DNA of 35,595 bases from Thermotogota bacterium. GTDB lineage: Bacteria; Bipolaricaulota; Bipolaricaulia; UBA7950; UBA9294. Made by a program: the position numbers and the translations under genes. The notes under the pieces are model-generated. The model ran no database searches. It saw nothing but the letters and a program-made list of their open reading frames with translations, and was not told the DNA's origin. The stretch spans positions 1 through 35,595 of the forward strand of contig JBDKUT010000087.1 in the NCBI GenBank assembly GCA_039679545.1, given 5' to 3'. Positions within the stretch are counted from its first letter, which is position 1. Each line of letters begins with the position of its first letter. Shown piece after piece: positions 29,930 through 35,595 of the stretch.

Positions 29930-30994
29930 GTGCTGAGGGAAACGGACACAGTCATGGACGTAGCGGTTGTGGGGTTGGGCCGCGTGGGGAGGGCCTTCGC
30001 GAGACAGCTCTTCAACGTCGACCTACGCGTGCGCCTTGTCGCGCTGGCCGATCGGCGAGGACACCTTGTGTGTCCGGAAGGGTTTGCGGCTTCGGTCGTC
30101 GAGCGAATTCTCTCGGCGAAAGCCGACGGCGGGGCAATCTCCGACGTTGCCGAAGCGACGCCGGGAGCGTTGCCTGTCTTCCGGATGGCCACAGCGGGGA
30201 CGACGTTCGTCGACACAACCGCGGCGGCGGGAATGGCTCCCGTGTGGGAAGCCGCGCTCGATGCCGGGGCGGGCGTCGTCCTGGCAAACAAGCTCCCACT
30301 CAGCGAGGCGTACGTGACCTCCGCGGCGCTCTTTGCCGCTCCGAGGCTGCGGTATGAGGCGACCGTGGGAGCCGGGCTTCCGGTGCTGTCTACCCTCCGC
30401 ACGTTGCGCCTCACCGGAGACTCCATTGTGCGGATCGACGCCGCCGTCAGCGGCACGTTGGGGTTCATTGCAGGGAGAGTGCGGGAAGGACATCGCCTGT
30501 CCCAGGCGGTCTCCGATGCGATCGACCTCGGCTTTGCGGAGCCGGATCCTCGAGAGGACCTCCTCGGGCGCGACGTCGCCCGCAAGGCTCTGATCCTCGG
30601 ACGCTCGGCCGGCTGGCCGCTCGAGGAGGTCGACCTTGACGTCACTCCCTTTGTGCGGGGAAAAGGTTCCTTCGGCGCTTCGCAGTTCTTGGCACGGATT
30701 GCAGAGGAAGACGCCGGCGTTGCGGCACAGTTCCGGGAGGCGGAGCGGAAGGGCGAGACGCTCGTGTACCGGGCATCGATTCAGGCAAGCGGGGCGGCGA
30801 TCGGCCTCGCGTCCGTTCCGTCAGCCGATCCGCTTGCTGGACTTCGGGGCGGCGAGAACCGCGTCGCCTTCTTCACGCGCCGTTGCCCCGAGTCTCCCGT
30901 CTCGATTGCCGGGCCCGGTGCCGGTCCAGAGGTCACAGCGGCGGGCGTTCTCGGCGATCTCATCGACCTGGCTGCGAGGGAGGAACGACGATGA
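29930..30994 (+). CDS. hom: Homoserine dehydrogenase (ThrA-domain-like, no ACT domain)
   Basis: VVGLGRVG, VLANK, YEATVGAGLP, SGTL, EPDPREDL.G.DVARK, GPGAGPEVTAAGV. Confidence 0.92.
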   Translation: MLRETDTVMDVAVVGLGRVGRAFARQLFNVDLRVRLVALADRRGHLVCPEGFAASVVERILSAKADGGAISDVAEATPGALPVFRMATAGTTFVDTTAAAGMAPVWEAALDAGAGVVLANKLPLSEAYVTSAALFAAPRLRYEATVGAGLPVLSTLRTLRLTGDSIVRIDAAVSGTLGFIAGRVREGHRLSQAVSDAIDLGFAEPDPREDLLGRDVARKALILGRSAGWPLEEVDLDVTPFVRGKGSFGASQFLARIAEEDAGVAAQFREAERKGETLVYRASIQASGAAIGLASVPSADPLAGLRGGENRVAFFTRRCPESPVSIAGPGAGPEVTAAGVLGDLIDLAAREERR

Positions 30995-32391
30995 CCACAC
31001 TCGTTCTGAAGTTCGGAGGCACCTCGGTTGGAAACGCTGACGCGATATTGCGTGCGGCGGATCTTGTGCTTGAACGCGTCCGTGCCGGCAACGGAGTCGC
31101 CGTGGTGGTCTCTGCAATGAGCGGCGTCACCGACGCGCTGACGCAAGGGATCCAAGCCGCGGCCATCGGAGACGACGAACTCCCTCGTCGTGTGGCAGCC
31201 GATGTTCTGGAACGACATTTCGTTGCCGCAGAAGTCCTCGGGGTCGAGAACGCGTCCGAGTTGAACGCCGCGGCCCAGGAGACAATGGACGAGTACCTGG
31301 CCGTCTGCGACAGCGTCCGCGTGCTCGGCGAAGCGACGCCACGCGCCCTCGACCGGGCAACGTCGCGCGGCGAACCGCTCCTGGCCCGGCTGCTGGCGGC
31401 GGTGCTTGCCGCGAGGGGAGTTGAGGCCGTCGCGATCGATCCTACGGAGGTCATCGTCACGGACTCAACGTATCAGAACGCGACGCCGGAGCTCGAGGAG
31501 ACGCGCGAGCGGGCAACGCGAACCCTGCGGCCGCTCATCGCTGCCGGCGTGATCCCCGTCGTAGCAGGCTTCATGGGCGGCACCCGTGACGGTGTGACGA
31601 CGACGCTCGGACGGGGAGGCAGTGACTTCTCTGCGGCAATTCTTGGGTACGCACTCCGAGCGGAGGAGGTTCTGATCTGGACGGACGTGGACGGCGTGAT
31701 GACCGCGGATCCGCGCCTTGTGCCCACGGCGCGCGTCATCCCCGTCCTGTCCTACGGCGAAGTCGGCGAACTTGCCTACTTCGGCGCGAAGGTCCTTCAC
31801 CCGCGCACGATTCGGCCCCTTGTCGACGAACAAATTCCCTTGCGCATCCTGAACACCTTCCGGCCCGAGTGCCCGGGAACTCGCATTCAGCCTGAGGCGG
31901 ACCTCGCGCCGGGCACTGTCAAGGCGGTGACCGACATTCGTGGGCTGTCGCTTGTCACCGTAGAGGGGCGCGGGATGCTCGGTGTGCCTGGAATCGCGGC
32001 GCGTACGTTCGACAGCGTAGCCCGCTGCTGCGCGAATGTGCTGATGATTTCTCAGGCGTCGTCGGAGCAGTCGATCTGCTTCGTGGTGCCGGGTGAGGCC
32101 GCGGCCCAGGTGAAAGCGGAGTTGGACGAGGAGTTCGCGCTGGAGCTGGCCCGCCGGGCGATCGACGAGGTTCGCGTCGTCCCCGACGTGGTCGTCGTGA
32201 CGGCTCTGGGGGCGGGGATGCGCGGGGCCATCGGCGCGGTGGGAAAGGTGCTCGATGCCGTAGGGAGGCGGGGCGTCGACGTGATGGCTCTTGCCCAGGG
32301 CTCGTCGGAGTGGAGCGTTTCGATGGCCGTGACCGCGTCGGACCGAGAGGCGGCCGTGCGTGCCATCCACGATGAGGTGATTGCGCGATGA
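30991..32391 (+). CDS. lysC: Aspartate kinase with two ACT domains
   Basis: VLKFGGTSV, VVVSAMSGVTD, TTLGRGGSDFSA, WTDVDGVMTADP, YFGAKVLHP, SQASSE and AQGSSE. ATG overlaps the hom stop (ATGA). Confidence 0.93.
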   Translation: MTTLVLKFGGTSVGNADAILRAADLVLERVRAGNGVAVVVSAMSGVTDALTQGIQAAAIGDDELPRRVAADVLERHFVAAEVLGVENASELNAAAQETMDEYLAVCDSVRVLGEATPRALDRATSRGEPLLARLLAAVLAARGVEAVAIDPTEVIVTDSTYQNATPELEETRERATRTLRPLIAAGVIPVVAGFMGGTRDGVTTTLGRGGSDFSAAILGYALRAEEVLIWTDVDGVMTADPRLVPTARVIPVLSYGEVGELAYFGAKVLHPRTIRPLVDEQIPLRILNTFRPECPGTRIQPEADLAPGTVKAVTDIRGLSLVTVEGRGMLGVPGIAARTFDSVARCCANVLMISQASSEQSICFVVPGEAAAQVKAELDEEFALELARRAIDEVRVVPDVVVVTALGAGMRGAIGAVGKVLDAVGRRGVDVMALAQGSSEWSVSMAVTASDREAAVRAIHDEVIAR

Positions 32392-33443
32392 AACGGATTC
32401 AAGTAGGGATTCTGGGAGCCACGGGGACCGTCGGGCAGGGATTTGTTCGACTCCTCGCTGGTCACCCGTGGTTCGAGGTTGCGGCGGTGGCCGCCTCGGA
32501 GCGTAGCGCTGGAAAGTCGTTCGGGGAAGCCTGTCGTTGGCGCCTTTCCGCTCCGCTTCCCGATCGGGTCGGACGCCTTCCCGTCCTTCCGCTCGACCCG
32601 CGTGGGATGGCCGGAATCCCACTCGTGTTCTCCGCACTTCCGGCAGACGTGGCGTGCGACGTCGAGCCCAGCTTCGTTGCGGAGGGGTTCGCGGTCTCCT
32701 CGAACGCGTCCTCGTACCGACAGCAGTCCGACGTTCCGCTCGTTATCCCGGAGGTCAACCCGGACCATCTGAGGCTGATCGACCTCCAGCGGCGGGTGCC
32801 CGGAAAAGGGGGCTTCCTCGTTACGAACCCCAACTGCACGACCACAGGGATTGCGCTTGCGCTGAAACCTCTTCACGATGCGTTCGAACTGAGCAGCGTC
32901 GTGGCCACGTCGATGCAAGCGGTGTCCGGAGCCGGCTACCCGGGCGTGGCCTCGCTCGACATCCTGGACAACGTGGTTCCGTGGATCTTCGGCGAGGAGG
33001 AGAAGATTGAGACCGAAACCCGGCTTCTGCTGGGTCACATCGATGGGCGCGGCAAGGTGAAGGCGGAATTCGAGGTGAGCGCGCACGCCAATCGTGTTTC
33101 GGTTCTCGACGGGCACACGGTCTGCCTCTCGCTCGGTTTCCAGCGTCCGTGCGCTCCGCGCGACGCGATCGATGTCCTACACATGTTCCGTGGAGCCAGC
33201 GTGGACTTGGACCTTCCCAGCGCCCCGGAGCGGCCCGTTCTCGTTCGCGAGGAGGGAGACCGGCCGCAACCGCGCCTCGACCGGGATGCTGGCCGAGGAA
33301 TGACGGTGACGGTCGGTCGAGTCCGCACGTGCTCGGTGCTCGACCTCAAGTTGGTCCTCGTTGTCCACAACACGGTGCGTGGGGCTGCGGGGGGGTCGAT
33401 CGAGAACGGCGAACTGCTCGTCCGAGGGGGGTGGTTGTCATGA
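32388..33443 (+). CDS. asd: Aspartate-semialdehyde dehydrogenase (archaeal/fungal-like subtype)
   Basis: GILGATGTVGQ, VPLVIPEVN, NPNCTT (catalytic Cys), MQAVSGAGYPG, PQPRLDR, HNTVRGAAG. Confidence 0.95.
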   Translation: MKRIQVGILGATGTVGQGFVRLLAGHPWFEVAAVAASERSAGKSFGEACRWRLSAPLPDRVGRLPVLPLDPRGMAGIPLVFSALPADVACDVEPSFVAEGFAVSSNASSYRQQSDVPLVIPEVNPDHLRLIDLQRRVPGKGGFLVTNPNCTTTGIALALKPLHDAFELSSVVATSMQAVSGAGYPGVASLDILDNVVPWIFGEEEKIETETRLLLGHIDGRGKVKAEFEVSAHANRVSVLDGHTVCLSLGFQRPCAPRDAIDVLHMFRGASVDLDLPSAPERPVLVREEGDRPQPRLDRDAGRGMTVTVGRVRTCSVLDLKLVLVVHNTVRGAAGGSIENGELLVRGGWLS

Positions 33444-34558
33444 GGTTTCGAGGAGAGGGAACTATCCAGGACGTCGTCGGGGATCTTCTCCTCTACCGGA
33501 ATCTCGTTCCGGTGGACCGGCGTCTCCCCGGGATCGACGAGCTTCGAAAGAGGCTCGGGATCCTCGCCGGGGAGCACCCGCGGAAGGGAACGGAGCGGCA
33601 TGCCCGCGTGGTTGCCGAGATCGTCCAGGCGGCGGGGAGGCAAGCGGGGACGGCGGACGATCTCGCGCGATGGATCTACGTGGGGGATACGCGGCAGAGC
33701 GACGGTGCGACCTTCCGGGGATTGTGTCGAGTCACGGGGCGTCCTGGGTGGGCGTTCATCGCCGGCGAGTCCGACGTGCCGGGCTCGGAGGAGAGCCACG
33801 CAGACAGCCACCTCGTGTTTGGCCATCGTTGGGCGGAGATTGACGCGTTCTTCGCCGCGGCCGGCGCAGCGGGGTTCGGTTGCGGTCCCAACACCGCGGT
33901 CATTGTGGATCTCGACAAGACGCTCCTCGGGGCTCGCGGACGCAACGACCACGTCGTCGATAATGCCCGCACTGCGGCAGCCCTGTCCGTGGTGGGCGAA
34001 GCCGTCGGCTCGACGGAGTCAGCGGGGTTGGCGGACATCTATGCGGAGATCAACCACTCCCGGTTTCGGGACTTCGTGGAGGACAACCAGGACGTCGTCG
34101 TTTACCTCTCGACGCTCGTCGTTTCCGGATCCGTGTCGTTGTCCGACCTTGAGGTCCGTAGGACCGATCAAGCGGACAAGGGATTCCGCGCGTTCCTTGA
34201 GGAGGTCAACCGACGGCGAAGGAGCCTCTCTCCGGGCATGCGTTCGTTCCACGATGACGTCTACGGCCGCGCGTCGGCGGGGTGTCCCACGCTCGTTCCC
34301 GCGTTTCGCCGTGCCGAGTACCGAGAGACCGTCGCGCGCATGTCGAATGCGGCCGCCGACGCGCCGGTCGGTCGGCTTTTGGAGGAGCGGGTAGCGATCA
34401 CGGGGGAAGTCTGGGACGTTCTTCGGGCGTGGCGGGAGCGCGGTGCGCTCATCTTCGCGTTGTCGGACAAACCGGACGAGGCGGCGTTCCCGTCGGCGGG
34501 GGCGCCGGTCGACGCGCGGCCGATCCACGCTACGCCGACCTGCATCATCGGAGGATGA
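33440..34558 (+). CDS. Uncharacterised protein; probable circularly permuted HAD-superfamily phosphatase/phosphotransferase
   Basis: ATG overlaps the asd stop (ATGA) and its stop is 2 nt before thrC. HAD-like motifs occur in the order PRK (III), WIYVGDTRQSD (IV), VIVDLDKTL (I), LIFALSDKP (II). Confidence 0.7.
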   Translation: MRFRGEGTIQDVVGDLLLYRNLVPVDRRLPGIDELRKRLGILAGEHPRKGTERHARVVAEIVQAAGRQAGTADDLARWIYVGDTRQSDGATFRGLCRVTGRPGWAFIAGESDVPGSEESHADSHLVFGHRWAEIDAFFAAAGAAGFGCGPNTAVIVDLDKTLLGARGRNDHVVDNARTAAALSVVGEAVGSTESAGLADIYAEINHSRFRDFVEDNQDVVVYLSTLVVSGSVSLSDLEVRRTDQADKGFRAFLEEVNRRRRSLSPGMRSFHDDVYGRASAGCPTLVPAFRRAEYRETVARMSNAAADAPVGRLLEERVAITGEVWDVLRAWRERGALIFALSDKPDEAAFPSAGAPVDARPIHATPTCIIGG

Positions 34559-34560
34559 AC

Positions 34561-35595
34561 ATGGCGAAACGGCTCTCGTGCTGGTACGCGTGCGTTCGCG
34601 GCTGTGAGGGAAGAGTCCCGATGGGCGGGACGGTGTACGAGTGTCCCCGGTGCGGCGGCCTCGTCGACGTCGAGCATGACCTCGACGCCCTGAAGGAGCG
34701 GTCCGCGGAGGAGTGGAAGAGCCTGTTCCGCGAGCGGGCCGCGGCCGCCGCGTGGCCGATGTCGAGCGGGGTCTGGAGTCGCCGCGAGCTGGTCCTGCCC
34801 TCGATTCGTGACGAGCACATCGTGTCGCTCGGAGAGGGGCGGACGCCCCTCGTCCCGCTTCCGCGACTTGCCCGCACCCTCGCACTTCGGGAGCTGTGGG
34901 TCAAGCAGTGCGGGACGAGCGCGACCGGATCGTTCAAGGATCTCGGGATGACCGTCCTCGTCTCCGCCGTGCGGCAGGCCATCTCCGACGGTGCGCCCCT
35001 CCGGGCCATCGCGTGCGCGTCGACGGGAGACACGTCAGCGGCGCTCGCGGCATACGGCGCGGCGGCCGGCATCCCCACGATCGTCTTCCTCCCGCGGGGC
35101 AAGGTCACACCTGCGCAGCTCGTGCAGCCGCGGGCCAACGGGGCCATCGTGCTTGCCCTCGACGGGGACTTCGACGACTGCATGCGCGTTGTTCGAGACG
35201 TCACGGCTGACCGGACGATCTACCTTGCCAACTCCCTGAACGCGCTCCGAATCGAGGGGCAGAAGACGGTGGCGATCGAGATCGCTGAGCAGCTCGGCTG
35301 GAGTGTGCCAGACTGGGTCGTCGTCCCGTGCGGAAACCTCGGCAACGTGGCGGCGATCGGAAAGGGGTTTCTCCTGCTCCGCGAGCTCAATTTGATTGAC
35401 CGCCTCCCCCGAATTGCGGCCGCACAGGCAGAGAACGCCGACCCGCTCTACCGGAGCTACCAGACCGACTTCCGGAGATTCGATCCGCAACAGGCTCGGG
35501 CGACGCTTGCAACGGCTATCCAGATCGGGAATCCCGTCAGCTACGAGCGGGCGGTGCTCGTCCTGCGTCAGTTGGACGGAGTCGTCGAGCATGCA
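34561..35595 (+). CDS. thrC: Threonine synthase, truncated by window end
   Basis: Not in the ORF track (no stop in window). From ATG 34561 (GGAGG upstream): YECPRCGG, SLGEGRTPL, TGSFKDLGM (PLP lysine), ASTGDTSAALAAY, LANSLNALRIEGQKT, PCGNLGN, TLATAIQIGNPVS. Confidence 0.95.
   Translation, partial: MAKRLSCWYACVRGCEGRVPMGGTVYECPRCGGLVDVEHDLDALKERSAEEWKSLFRERAAAAAWPMSSGVWSRRELVLPSIRDEHIVSLGEGRTPLVPLPRLARTLALRELWVKQCGTSATGSFKDLGMTVLVSAVRQAISDGAPLRAIACASTGDTSAALAAYGAAAGIPTIVFLPRGKVTPAQLVQPRANGAIVLALDGDFDDCMRVVRDVTADRTIYLANSLNALRIEGQKTVAIEIAEQLGWSVPDWVVVPCGNLGNVAAIGKGFLLLRELNLIDRLPRIAAAQAENADPLYRSYQTDFRRFDPQQARATLATAIQIGNPVSYERAVLVLRQLDGVVEHA

Follow-up and report, generated by a model that had tools for sequence, protein, structure and literature searches.

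Enzymes that phosphorylate homoserine

The homoserine kinase step is described as one of four behind most of the remaining gaps in amino-acid pathways, missing in 16 of 208 prototrophs (GapMind 2026, 10.1101/2024.10.14.618325). Two ATP-dependent enzymes of different folds are assigned to it, ThrB (a GHMP kinase, TIGR00191) and ThrB_alt (APH type, TIGR00938). ThrH of Pseudomonas aeruginosa is reported as a haloacid dehalogenase (HAD) that acts as a phosphoserine:homoserine phosphotransferase, with no ATP-dependent kinase activity (PMC1079889). HomK (also ThrB2; TIGR02535, BT2402) is presented as a phosphoglycerate-mutase-like metalloenzyme with a catalytic serine, confirmed by thrB complementation (10.1101/2024.10.14.618325). 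Here we describe a gene, X, that occupies the homoserine-kinase position of a threonine operon on a contig of 35,595 nucleotides, the whole of which we call the window (Thermotogota bacterium, assigned to the Bipolaricaulota; assembly GCA_039679545.1, contig JBDKUT010000087.1). Its motifs, their order along the chain, its place in the operon and its exclusion of thrB are direct observations. X is very probably a new, non-orthologous replacement of ThrB, predicted to form O-phosphohomoserine for threonine synthase. It would be a further, independent solution to a step that its carriers would now be scored as lacking.

Like ThrH and HomK, X would take the place of ThrB, and like HomK it is found in threonine operons. 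The parallel with ThrH extends to HAD motifs, a cap in the C1 position and, for X as a prediction, a ping-pong mechanism through a phospho-aspartate. ThrH (TIGR02137), which is also listed as a phosphoserine phosphatase, is however about 205 residues long, whereas X has 372, a permuted motif order, an unrelated cap and an operon link to the aspartate kinase (AK) and asd genes.

A permuted order of HAD motifs

HAD enzymes are recognized by motifs I to IV, canonically in the linear order I-II-III-IV. X departs from this order, its motifs running III-IV-I-II along the chain, yet each of the motifs is present at the expected strand or helix:

33440..34558, + strand: X, predicted circularly permuted HAD-type enzyme and candidate homoserine phosphotransferase, 372 aa (from motifs, re-ordered profile and thrB exclusion)
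33578..33586, + strand: P-R-K49, HAD motif III lysine, before helix 52-69 (K in 61/61 copies; aligns with the canonical motif III K)
33683..33703, + strand: G82-D83-x4-D88, HAD motif IV, after strand 77-82 (conservation, AlphaFold secondary structure, profile alignment)
33908..33922, + strand: D157-L-D159-K-T161, HAD motif I, closing strand 152-157, with D157 as predicted nucleophile (D, D, K and T each 61/61)
33947..34390, + strand: all-helical cap, residues ~170-317, in the C1 position; predicted substrate-binding lid (model, conservation)
34463..34474, + strand: S342-D-K-P, HAD motif II, closing strand 337-341 (S/T 61/61, D 61/61, P 61/61)

The frame is open throughout, with the K49 codon at 33584 and the S342 codon at 34463, and its GC content at third codon positions (0.79) is comparable to that of the neighboring genes. 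We examined conservation in 61 full-length copies, namely the window's own and those of 60 genome loci. K49, G82, D88, D157, D159, K160, T161, D343, and P345 are invariant in all 61, position 342 is always S or T, and D83 is kept in 59. Since the motifs are near-invariant across these copies, they are not chance words. The cap holds a further group of invariant residues (R168, N169, R177, D215, N216, D218, T284, F289, and R290), where the conserved motifs are R177, D215-N-Q-D218, and T284-x4-F-R290-x2-E293.

The AlphaFold2 model of X (pLDDT 95.5, pTM 0.93) places K49 ahead of a helix, G82-D83 at the end of strand 77-82 and D157 at the end of strand 152-157; the helical cap, a helix and then S342, ending strand 337-341, follow. 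All four motif sites stand at HAD-typical places in the secondary structure. X nevertheless escapes standard HAD profiles, as the first-pass annotation had expected: searches of the X protein against Pfam and NCBIfam returned no family at E<=1, TIGR00191, TIGR00938, and TIGR02535 included, and PF00702 touched only 3 of 93 family members at E<=0.1. A PDB sequence search with the single protein gave no match. The family profile did find a top match in PDB, the HAD 2hcf, albeit weakly (E 0.087) and in three pieces of permuted order.

Re-ordering the profile brought the likeness out. Against 22 canonical HADs, hhalign aligned the native-order X profile over 49 columns at 19%, and, once the C-terminal part was joined ahead of the N-terminal part, over 102 columns across the junction at 75-78%. 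With the cap removed and the segments in the order I-II-III-IV, the match rose to 96.6% (E 5e-10, 112 columns), the best of 24 segment orders; the runner-up order reached 95.6% over 94 columns and the native order 89% over 47. Controls with AK, asd, and hom alignments stayed below 1%. Because the motif order is III-IV-I-II and the best re-ordering I-II-III-IV, we file X as a permuted HAD variant, and sequence and model together support its assignment as a circularly permuted HAD-type enzyme. The initial proposal that all four motifs are readable in permuted order is thereby borne out by the 61-copy conservation, the modeled secondary structure and the re-ordered profile alignment. The chain would start in the middle of a HAD, with motifs III and IV, and continue along what was once the C-terminal helix to motif I, followed by the large helical cap and then motif II. 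By profile, the closest core is that of HAD_2 or phosphoglycolate-phosphatase-like HADs (PF13419, PF00702; PDB 2hcf), whose four segments align with those of X once re-ordered. X differs from these in its permutation, which puts the new termini between motif III and the strand that follows motif II, in a far larger, unrelated cap, in its motif I (DxDKT) and in the four residues between the motif IV aspartates. Its cap showed no likeness to ThrH or HAD_2 caps.

Several points count against this assignment. The segment limits in the re-ordered alignment were our own choice. For the full model, neither Foldseek nor VIA-align retrieved a significant HAD (best Z 7.3, generic alpha/beta), and a half model comprising motif I, the cap and motif II retrieved HADs only as weak, non-significant rows (E ~1-4, TM up to 0.34). 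In addition, the window's own copy is off the family consensus at cap positions 213, 282, and 285-287. The top structural rows for the full model span residues 45-345 as one alpha/beta unit, and the failure of fold search fits a permutation without proving it. Of the structural and re-ordering checks proposed at the outset, the re-ordered profile thus matched HADs, while Foldseek yielded no significant HAD match. In an Atlas search, the clusters at >=0.97 were all unnamed and HAD clusters appeared at 0.77-0.78, which are a lead only; residues 147-372 alone retrieved nothing from the Atlas. X would be a HAD fold circularly permuted by nature, and it was overlooked here by Pfam, NCBIfam, Foldseek, and VIA-align.

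We also considered X as a relative of ThrH and rejected this: it has no TIGR02137 match, and hhalign gave 0.6-1.4% against six ThrH proteins. The earlier parallel with ThrH therefore holds insofar as replacement of ThrB by a HAD is supported, but kinship does not (hhalign ~1%). Since X is not a ThrH relative, a phosphoserine donor is not implied. The X family is real and widespread, and very probably provides O-phosphohomoserine in genomes without ThrB; in this it would work like ThrH while lying outside the ThrH family.

X and thrB exclude each other across genomes

If X replaces ThrB, as first proposed, its presence should anti-correlate with that of thrB. We examined 301 genomes from the class of G061, an Anaerolineales record, for which 90% completeness was requested; all counts from this set include kin and are not independent. 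X was found in 137 of these genomes and thrB in 113 (112 over cut-off). X alone occurred in 135, thrB alone in 111, neither in 53, and both in only 2, where 51 would be expected. We called thrC from a ThrC match at E<=1e-45 (240 of 301 genomes), rather than from TIGR00260 alone, because the latter also matched genomes with only a distant paralogue of the window's ThrC (268 versus 240 of 301). Among the 240 genomes with thrC, 129 carried X only, 97 thrB only, 2 both and 12 neither; among the 61 without it, 6 had X, 14 had thrB and 41 had neither. Seven of the 12 thrC genomes lacking both X and thrB carried ThrH over cut-off.

We further tested 68 X genomes, comprising 51 hand-picked from the 137 Anaerolineae and 17 others. 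All 68 carried hom, and none carried ThrB_alt over cut-off. By distribution, X groups with the ThrB replacements: it co-occurs with hom and thrC, excludes thrB and sits in threonine operons.

An alternative is that X is an accessory or regulatory partner of AK/Asd or of the long ThrC type, with the thrB exclusion reflecting two inherited operon types. The window-type ThrC indeed occurs in 106 of 135 X-only genomes and the short type in 72 of 111 thrB-only genomes; X is also tightly linked to AK, once fused to it, and has a sister clade in signaling operons. However, X adjoins short, mid, and long ThrC types, and the exclusion persists within the mid type (X 19, thrB 18, both 0, neither 3). A ThrC gene tree, built by a quick method from 87 hand-picked rows enriched for exceptions after two paralogous rows were dropped, required seven changes of the thrB label; starred branches force five of these, and the thrB clades lie within groups of X carriers. 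The split between X and thrB is not a single inherited division. A partner role would also mean that some 130 genomes with both hom and thrC lack a kinase, and the full catalytic motif set is invariant in X. We consider an accessory role highly improbable.

X might also dephosphorylate O-phosphohomoserine or aspartyl phosphate, as a phosphatase that keeps threonine and methionine in balance or clears excess intermediate, with another, unseen enzyme phosphorylating homoserine. Most HADs are hydrolases, X occurs in S-adenosylmethionine (SAM) riboswitch operons of one clade (see below), and ThrH-like genes occur in 9 of the 68 X genomes. An O-phosphohomoserine phosphatase should, however, accompany its kinase, whereas X and thrB meet in 2 of 301 genomes, and 59 of the 68 had no family-level match to ThrH, ThrB_alt, or ThrB. 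Because X genomes mostly lack a known enzyme that makes the phospho-substrate, the phosphatase, which the first-pass annotation had kept as its fallback, is improbable. The replacement of ThrB by X, in turn, is favored by the exclusion in these genomes and by the repeated switches on the ThrC tree; the routine co-occurrence with ThrB that was named at the outset as refuting it was not seen.

Known kinases are not detected in the host genome

The absence of thrB from the window, noted from the outset, extends to the whole host assembly (93.6% complete), in which profile scans gave no match to TIGR00191 (ThrB), TIGR02535 (HomK), or TIGR02137 (ThrH). An APH-like reading frame of the host was considered as ThrB_alt (TIGR00938) and rejected, at 41 bits against a cut-off of 256. 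Across 61 Bipolaricaulia genomes, thrB was over cut-off in none, and X was present in 13, all of the host family. HomK and X are mutually exclusive here: HomK scored at least 431 bits in 12 genomes of other families (8 over cut-off) and was found in none of the 13 X genomes. This split is close to a single contrast. Neither the weak TIGR00191 matches of Bipolaricaulia nor those of G061-G065 were accepted as thrB, since at up to 64 bits they lie below the cut-off; the best, in G063, is IspE. Among the 37 genomes of the host family, 11 carried X with the window-type thrC, 2 X alone, 2 thrC alone and 22 neither; one of these exceptions has its thrC at a contig start.

Several genomes fit the replacement of ThrB by X less well and weigh against it. 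Five Anaerolineae-class thrC genomes (G090, G094, G232, G336, and G365) have no X, thrB, ThrH, HomK, or ThrB_alt over cut-off; they are either incomplete assemblies or hold a further enzyme for the same step. Conversely, 8 X genomes, 6 of them Anaerolineae together with G006 and G007, lack thrC at our threshold, and G023 has thrC without X. The ThrH-like genes of the 9 X genomes (5 over cut-off) and the HomK that G206 carries beside X imply that some hosts need no X for the homoserine step, since another candidate is co-resident. Finally, a diverged HomK is reported to be able to score as a phosphoglycerate mutase (GapMind 2026, 10.1101/2024.10.14.618325), and such copies are possible in most X genomes; in the host family, where mutase-like homologues of HomK at around 290 bits are frequent, a diverged HomK might go unnoticed, although the host itself has none.

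Separately, in five thrB genomes (L221-L225) a mutase-like HomK homologue (30-31% to HomK) lies directly beside a window-type thrC.

Operon context and the phosphate donor

X is embedded in a tightly coupled run, hom-AK-asd-X-thrC, whose other members are:

29930..30994, + strand: hom, homoserine dehydrogenase; start codon uncertain (PF00742, E 8e-38)
30991..32391, + strand: aspartate kinase with two ACT domains; its ATG overlaps the hom stop (PF00696, ACT_9; TIGR00657 over cut-off)
32388..33443, + strand: asd, aspartate-semialdehyde dehydrogenase, archaeal type; its ATG overlaps the AK stop (TIGR00978 and NF006416 over cut-off)
34561..35595, + strand: thrC, threonine synthase, cut by the contig end; ribosome site within the last X codons (TIGR00260 over cut-off)

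The start ATG of X shares the ATGA at 33440-33443 with the asd stop. thrC starts at 34561, 2 nt past the X stop, and GGAGG lies ahead of it at 34550-34554. On re-checking, the coordinates and residues first given for X and its coupling to asd and thrC were correct in every instance. The contig stops inside thrC, where the view of this genome's operon ends. A second 3' part of thrC was found at the edge of another contig of the assembly (C76, 9132-9268; 86% DNA identity to the window end); it is probably the continuation from a related strain merged into the same bin.

From HAD chemistry, Asp157 would take up the phosphoryl group and pass it on to homoserine, giving O-phosphohomoserine; the reaction would be of the ping-pong type, with phospho-Asp157 as the intermediate and Asp159 acting as acid/base. 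Motifs I and IV would hold Mg2+, and the cap is predicted to form a lid over the substrate.

The donor, which we infer, is the weakest part of this proposal. We tentatively favor beta-aspartyl phosphate made by the neighboring AK, as a candidate that falls somewhat short of probable; phosphoserine is a less likely donor, and other donors are slightly less likely still. In this scheme, AK would charge aspartate and X would move the phosphate to homoserine, returning aspartate, so that one ATP-using kinase would power both phosphorylations of the threonine pathway. Beta-aspartyl phosphate is a high-energy acyl phosphate that differs from O-phosphohomoserine only by the C4 carbonyl, and by chemical reasoning transfer would be downhill. 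As donor and product share the four-carbon amino-acid frame, one pocket could serve both half-reactions, with aspartate recycled. If aspartyl phosphate is truly the donor, the pathway logic would itself be new.

Linkage was scored in 60 X loci from 58 genomes, chosen for long contigs, and in 40 thrB loci. Of the 60 X loci, 51 have AK or asd no more than 400 nt from X and 8 have thrC no more than 5 kb away; of the 40 thrB loci, a distance of 5 kb from thrB takes in AK or asd in 1 and thrC in 18. ThrB and ThrB_alt, which differ from X in fold and use ATP, share its predicted step, and the distribution of thrB is complementary to that of X; thrB clusters with thrC, but X clusters with AK and asd. 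In one Anaerolineaceae lineage, X is fused behind AK (5 records).

A divergent sister clade, compared in 20 sequences, keeps the core and most cap residues but has K160, H271, and H363 changed. In metagenomes, 9 of 10 loci place it next to a histidine-kinase or receiver gene, with no thr genes nearby. Receiver domains carry phospho-aspartate. Taken together, the AK/asd linkage, the AK-X fusion, the sister clade beside receivers and the donor chemistry lead us to favor aspartyl phosphate. We would extend this, more tentatively, to the suggestion that X is an aspartyl-phosphate:homoserine phosphotransferase and that the permuted family as a whole is specialized for beta-aspartyl phosphates, with its sister clade in two-component signaling operons.

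The sister clade itself (L299-L308; P0086, P0097, P0101, P0108, and P0136) has a motif I of the form DxD[Q/H/N]T and is ~380 aa long, or ~600 aa with an unnamed N-terminal extension. In 9 of 10 loci its operon partners are GAF-HATPase histidine kinases and receiver-domain genes, and some loci have Mrr-like, TIR, or DUF6119 genes. It is possibly a signaling or conflict system.

The case for aspartyl phosphate is tempered by several points. The AK-X fusion amounts to one event, since its 5 records are 98.6-100% identical, and we downgraded it accordingly. Inherited gene order would explain the AK/asd linkage equally well, and HomK is likewise described as clustering with AK-hom in Bacteroidetes (PMC9026213). 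Phosphoserine is available in X hosts, as serA was over cut-off in 4 of the 5 X genomes tested, and the host has a short PGDH-like gene.

These last findings bear on ThrH-like chemistry, in which X would fill the same ThrB-replacing role with phosphoserine as donor and would also be a phosphoserine phosphatase. Apart from the serA and PGDH-like genes, this is favored by ThrH being reported as the one proven HAD that performs such a transfer (PMC1079889) and by the speculative proposal of the same donor for HomK (GapMind 2026, 10.1101/2024.10.14.618325). Against it, no serA or serC family is among the recurrent annotated neighbors of the 60 X loci, where linkage is to AK and asd, and X has no profile likeness to ThrH in core or cap. 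We regard phosphoserine as doubtful, if a serious contender.

A further variant of the ThrB-replacing role would make X a true ATP-dependent homoserine kinase on a HAD core, its large cap binding the nucleotide as in P-type ATPases. The cap, at ~150 residues, is above the usual C1 size and has its own conserved Arg, Asp, and Lys. Yet X matched no nucleotide-binding family in Pfam or NCBIfam, and the HAD precedent, ThrH, is reported as not ATP-dependent (PMC1079889), making such a kinase very unlikely.

A link to methionine synthesis

In some lineages, the O-phosphohomoserine predicted to be formed by X is probably also used to make methionine. Seven Anaerolineae loci have a series consisting of a cystathionine-gamma-synthase (CGS)-like gene, AK, (asd), and, last, X; all 7 were tested, and a SAM-I riboswitch heads the operon in each. 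As these X proteins fall in one clade, the association represents about one event. Plant CGS uses O-phosphohomoserine, and since it takes that compound, the SAM-riboswitch CGS-like operons fit the formation of O-phosphohomoserine by X. A CGS-like gene with a SAM riboswitch also adjoins thrC and thrB in 5 of 5 thrB loci scanned. G007 has a CGS-like-AK-asd-X run with no riboswitch match and no window-type thrC, and an Rfam scan of the window gave no match.

In two near relatives (P0045; L144:6593-8239), X carries a Prok-JAB domain fused at its C-terminus, and G206, with this fusion, also has HomK. JAB-type Mec acts in a sulfur-carrier route from O-phosphohomoserine to homocysteine. Such a route is described in GapMind 2026 (10.1101/2024.10.14.618325).

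A CGS-like query run by tblastn against the host genome retrieved no Cys/Met PLP enzyme at E<=1e-4; the host may be without de novo methionine synthesis, or the gene may be unassembled.

Distribution of the X family

A HMMER search over 1.84 billion representatives yielded 272 relatives at E<=0.001, of which we used the best 150. X copies were seen in Bipolaricaulota, Anaerolineae, Roseiflexaceae, and one Acidobacteria record. Our literature searches, whose coverage lay outside subscription journals, found no paper describing the family. Among named records, a Candidatus Bipolaricaulis contig comes closest, sharing the operon at 88% identity.

Five X copies lie away from any aspartate-pathway cluster (L120, L124, L147, L107, and L123); two of them are second genome copies and early-branching. 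The X of G007 (L041:8967-10355) is divergent (31%), on a long branch, with residues changed near motifs II and IV. One protein of 816 aa (P0094) has an X-like domain after ~430 unannotated residues, with no Pfam match. Two loci titled uncultured Klebsiella (L006 and L008) agree in gene order and identities with the Roseiflexaceae/Chloroflexota loci L005, L007, and L009, and their titles are probably mislabeled.

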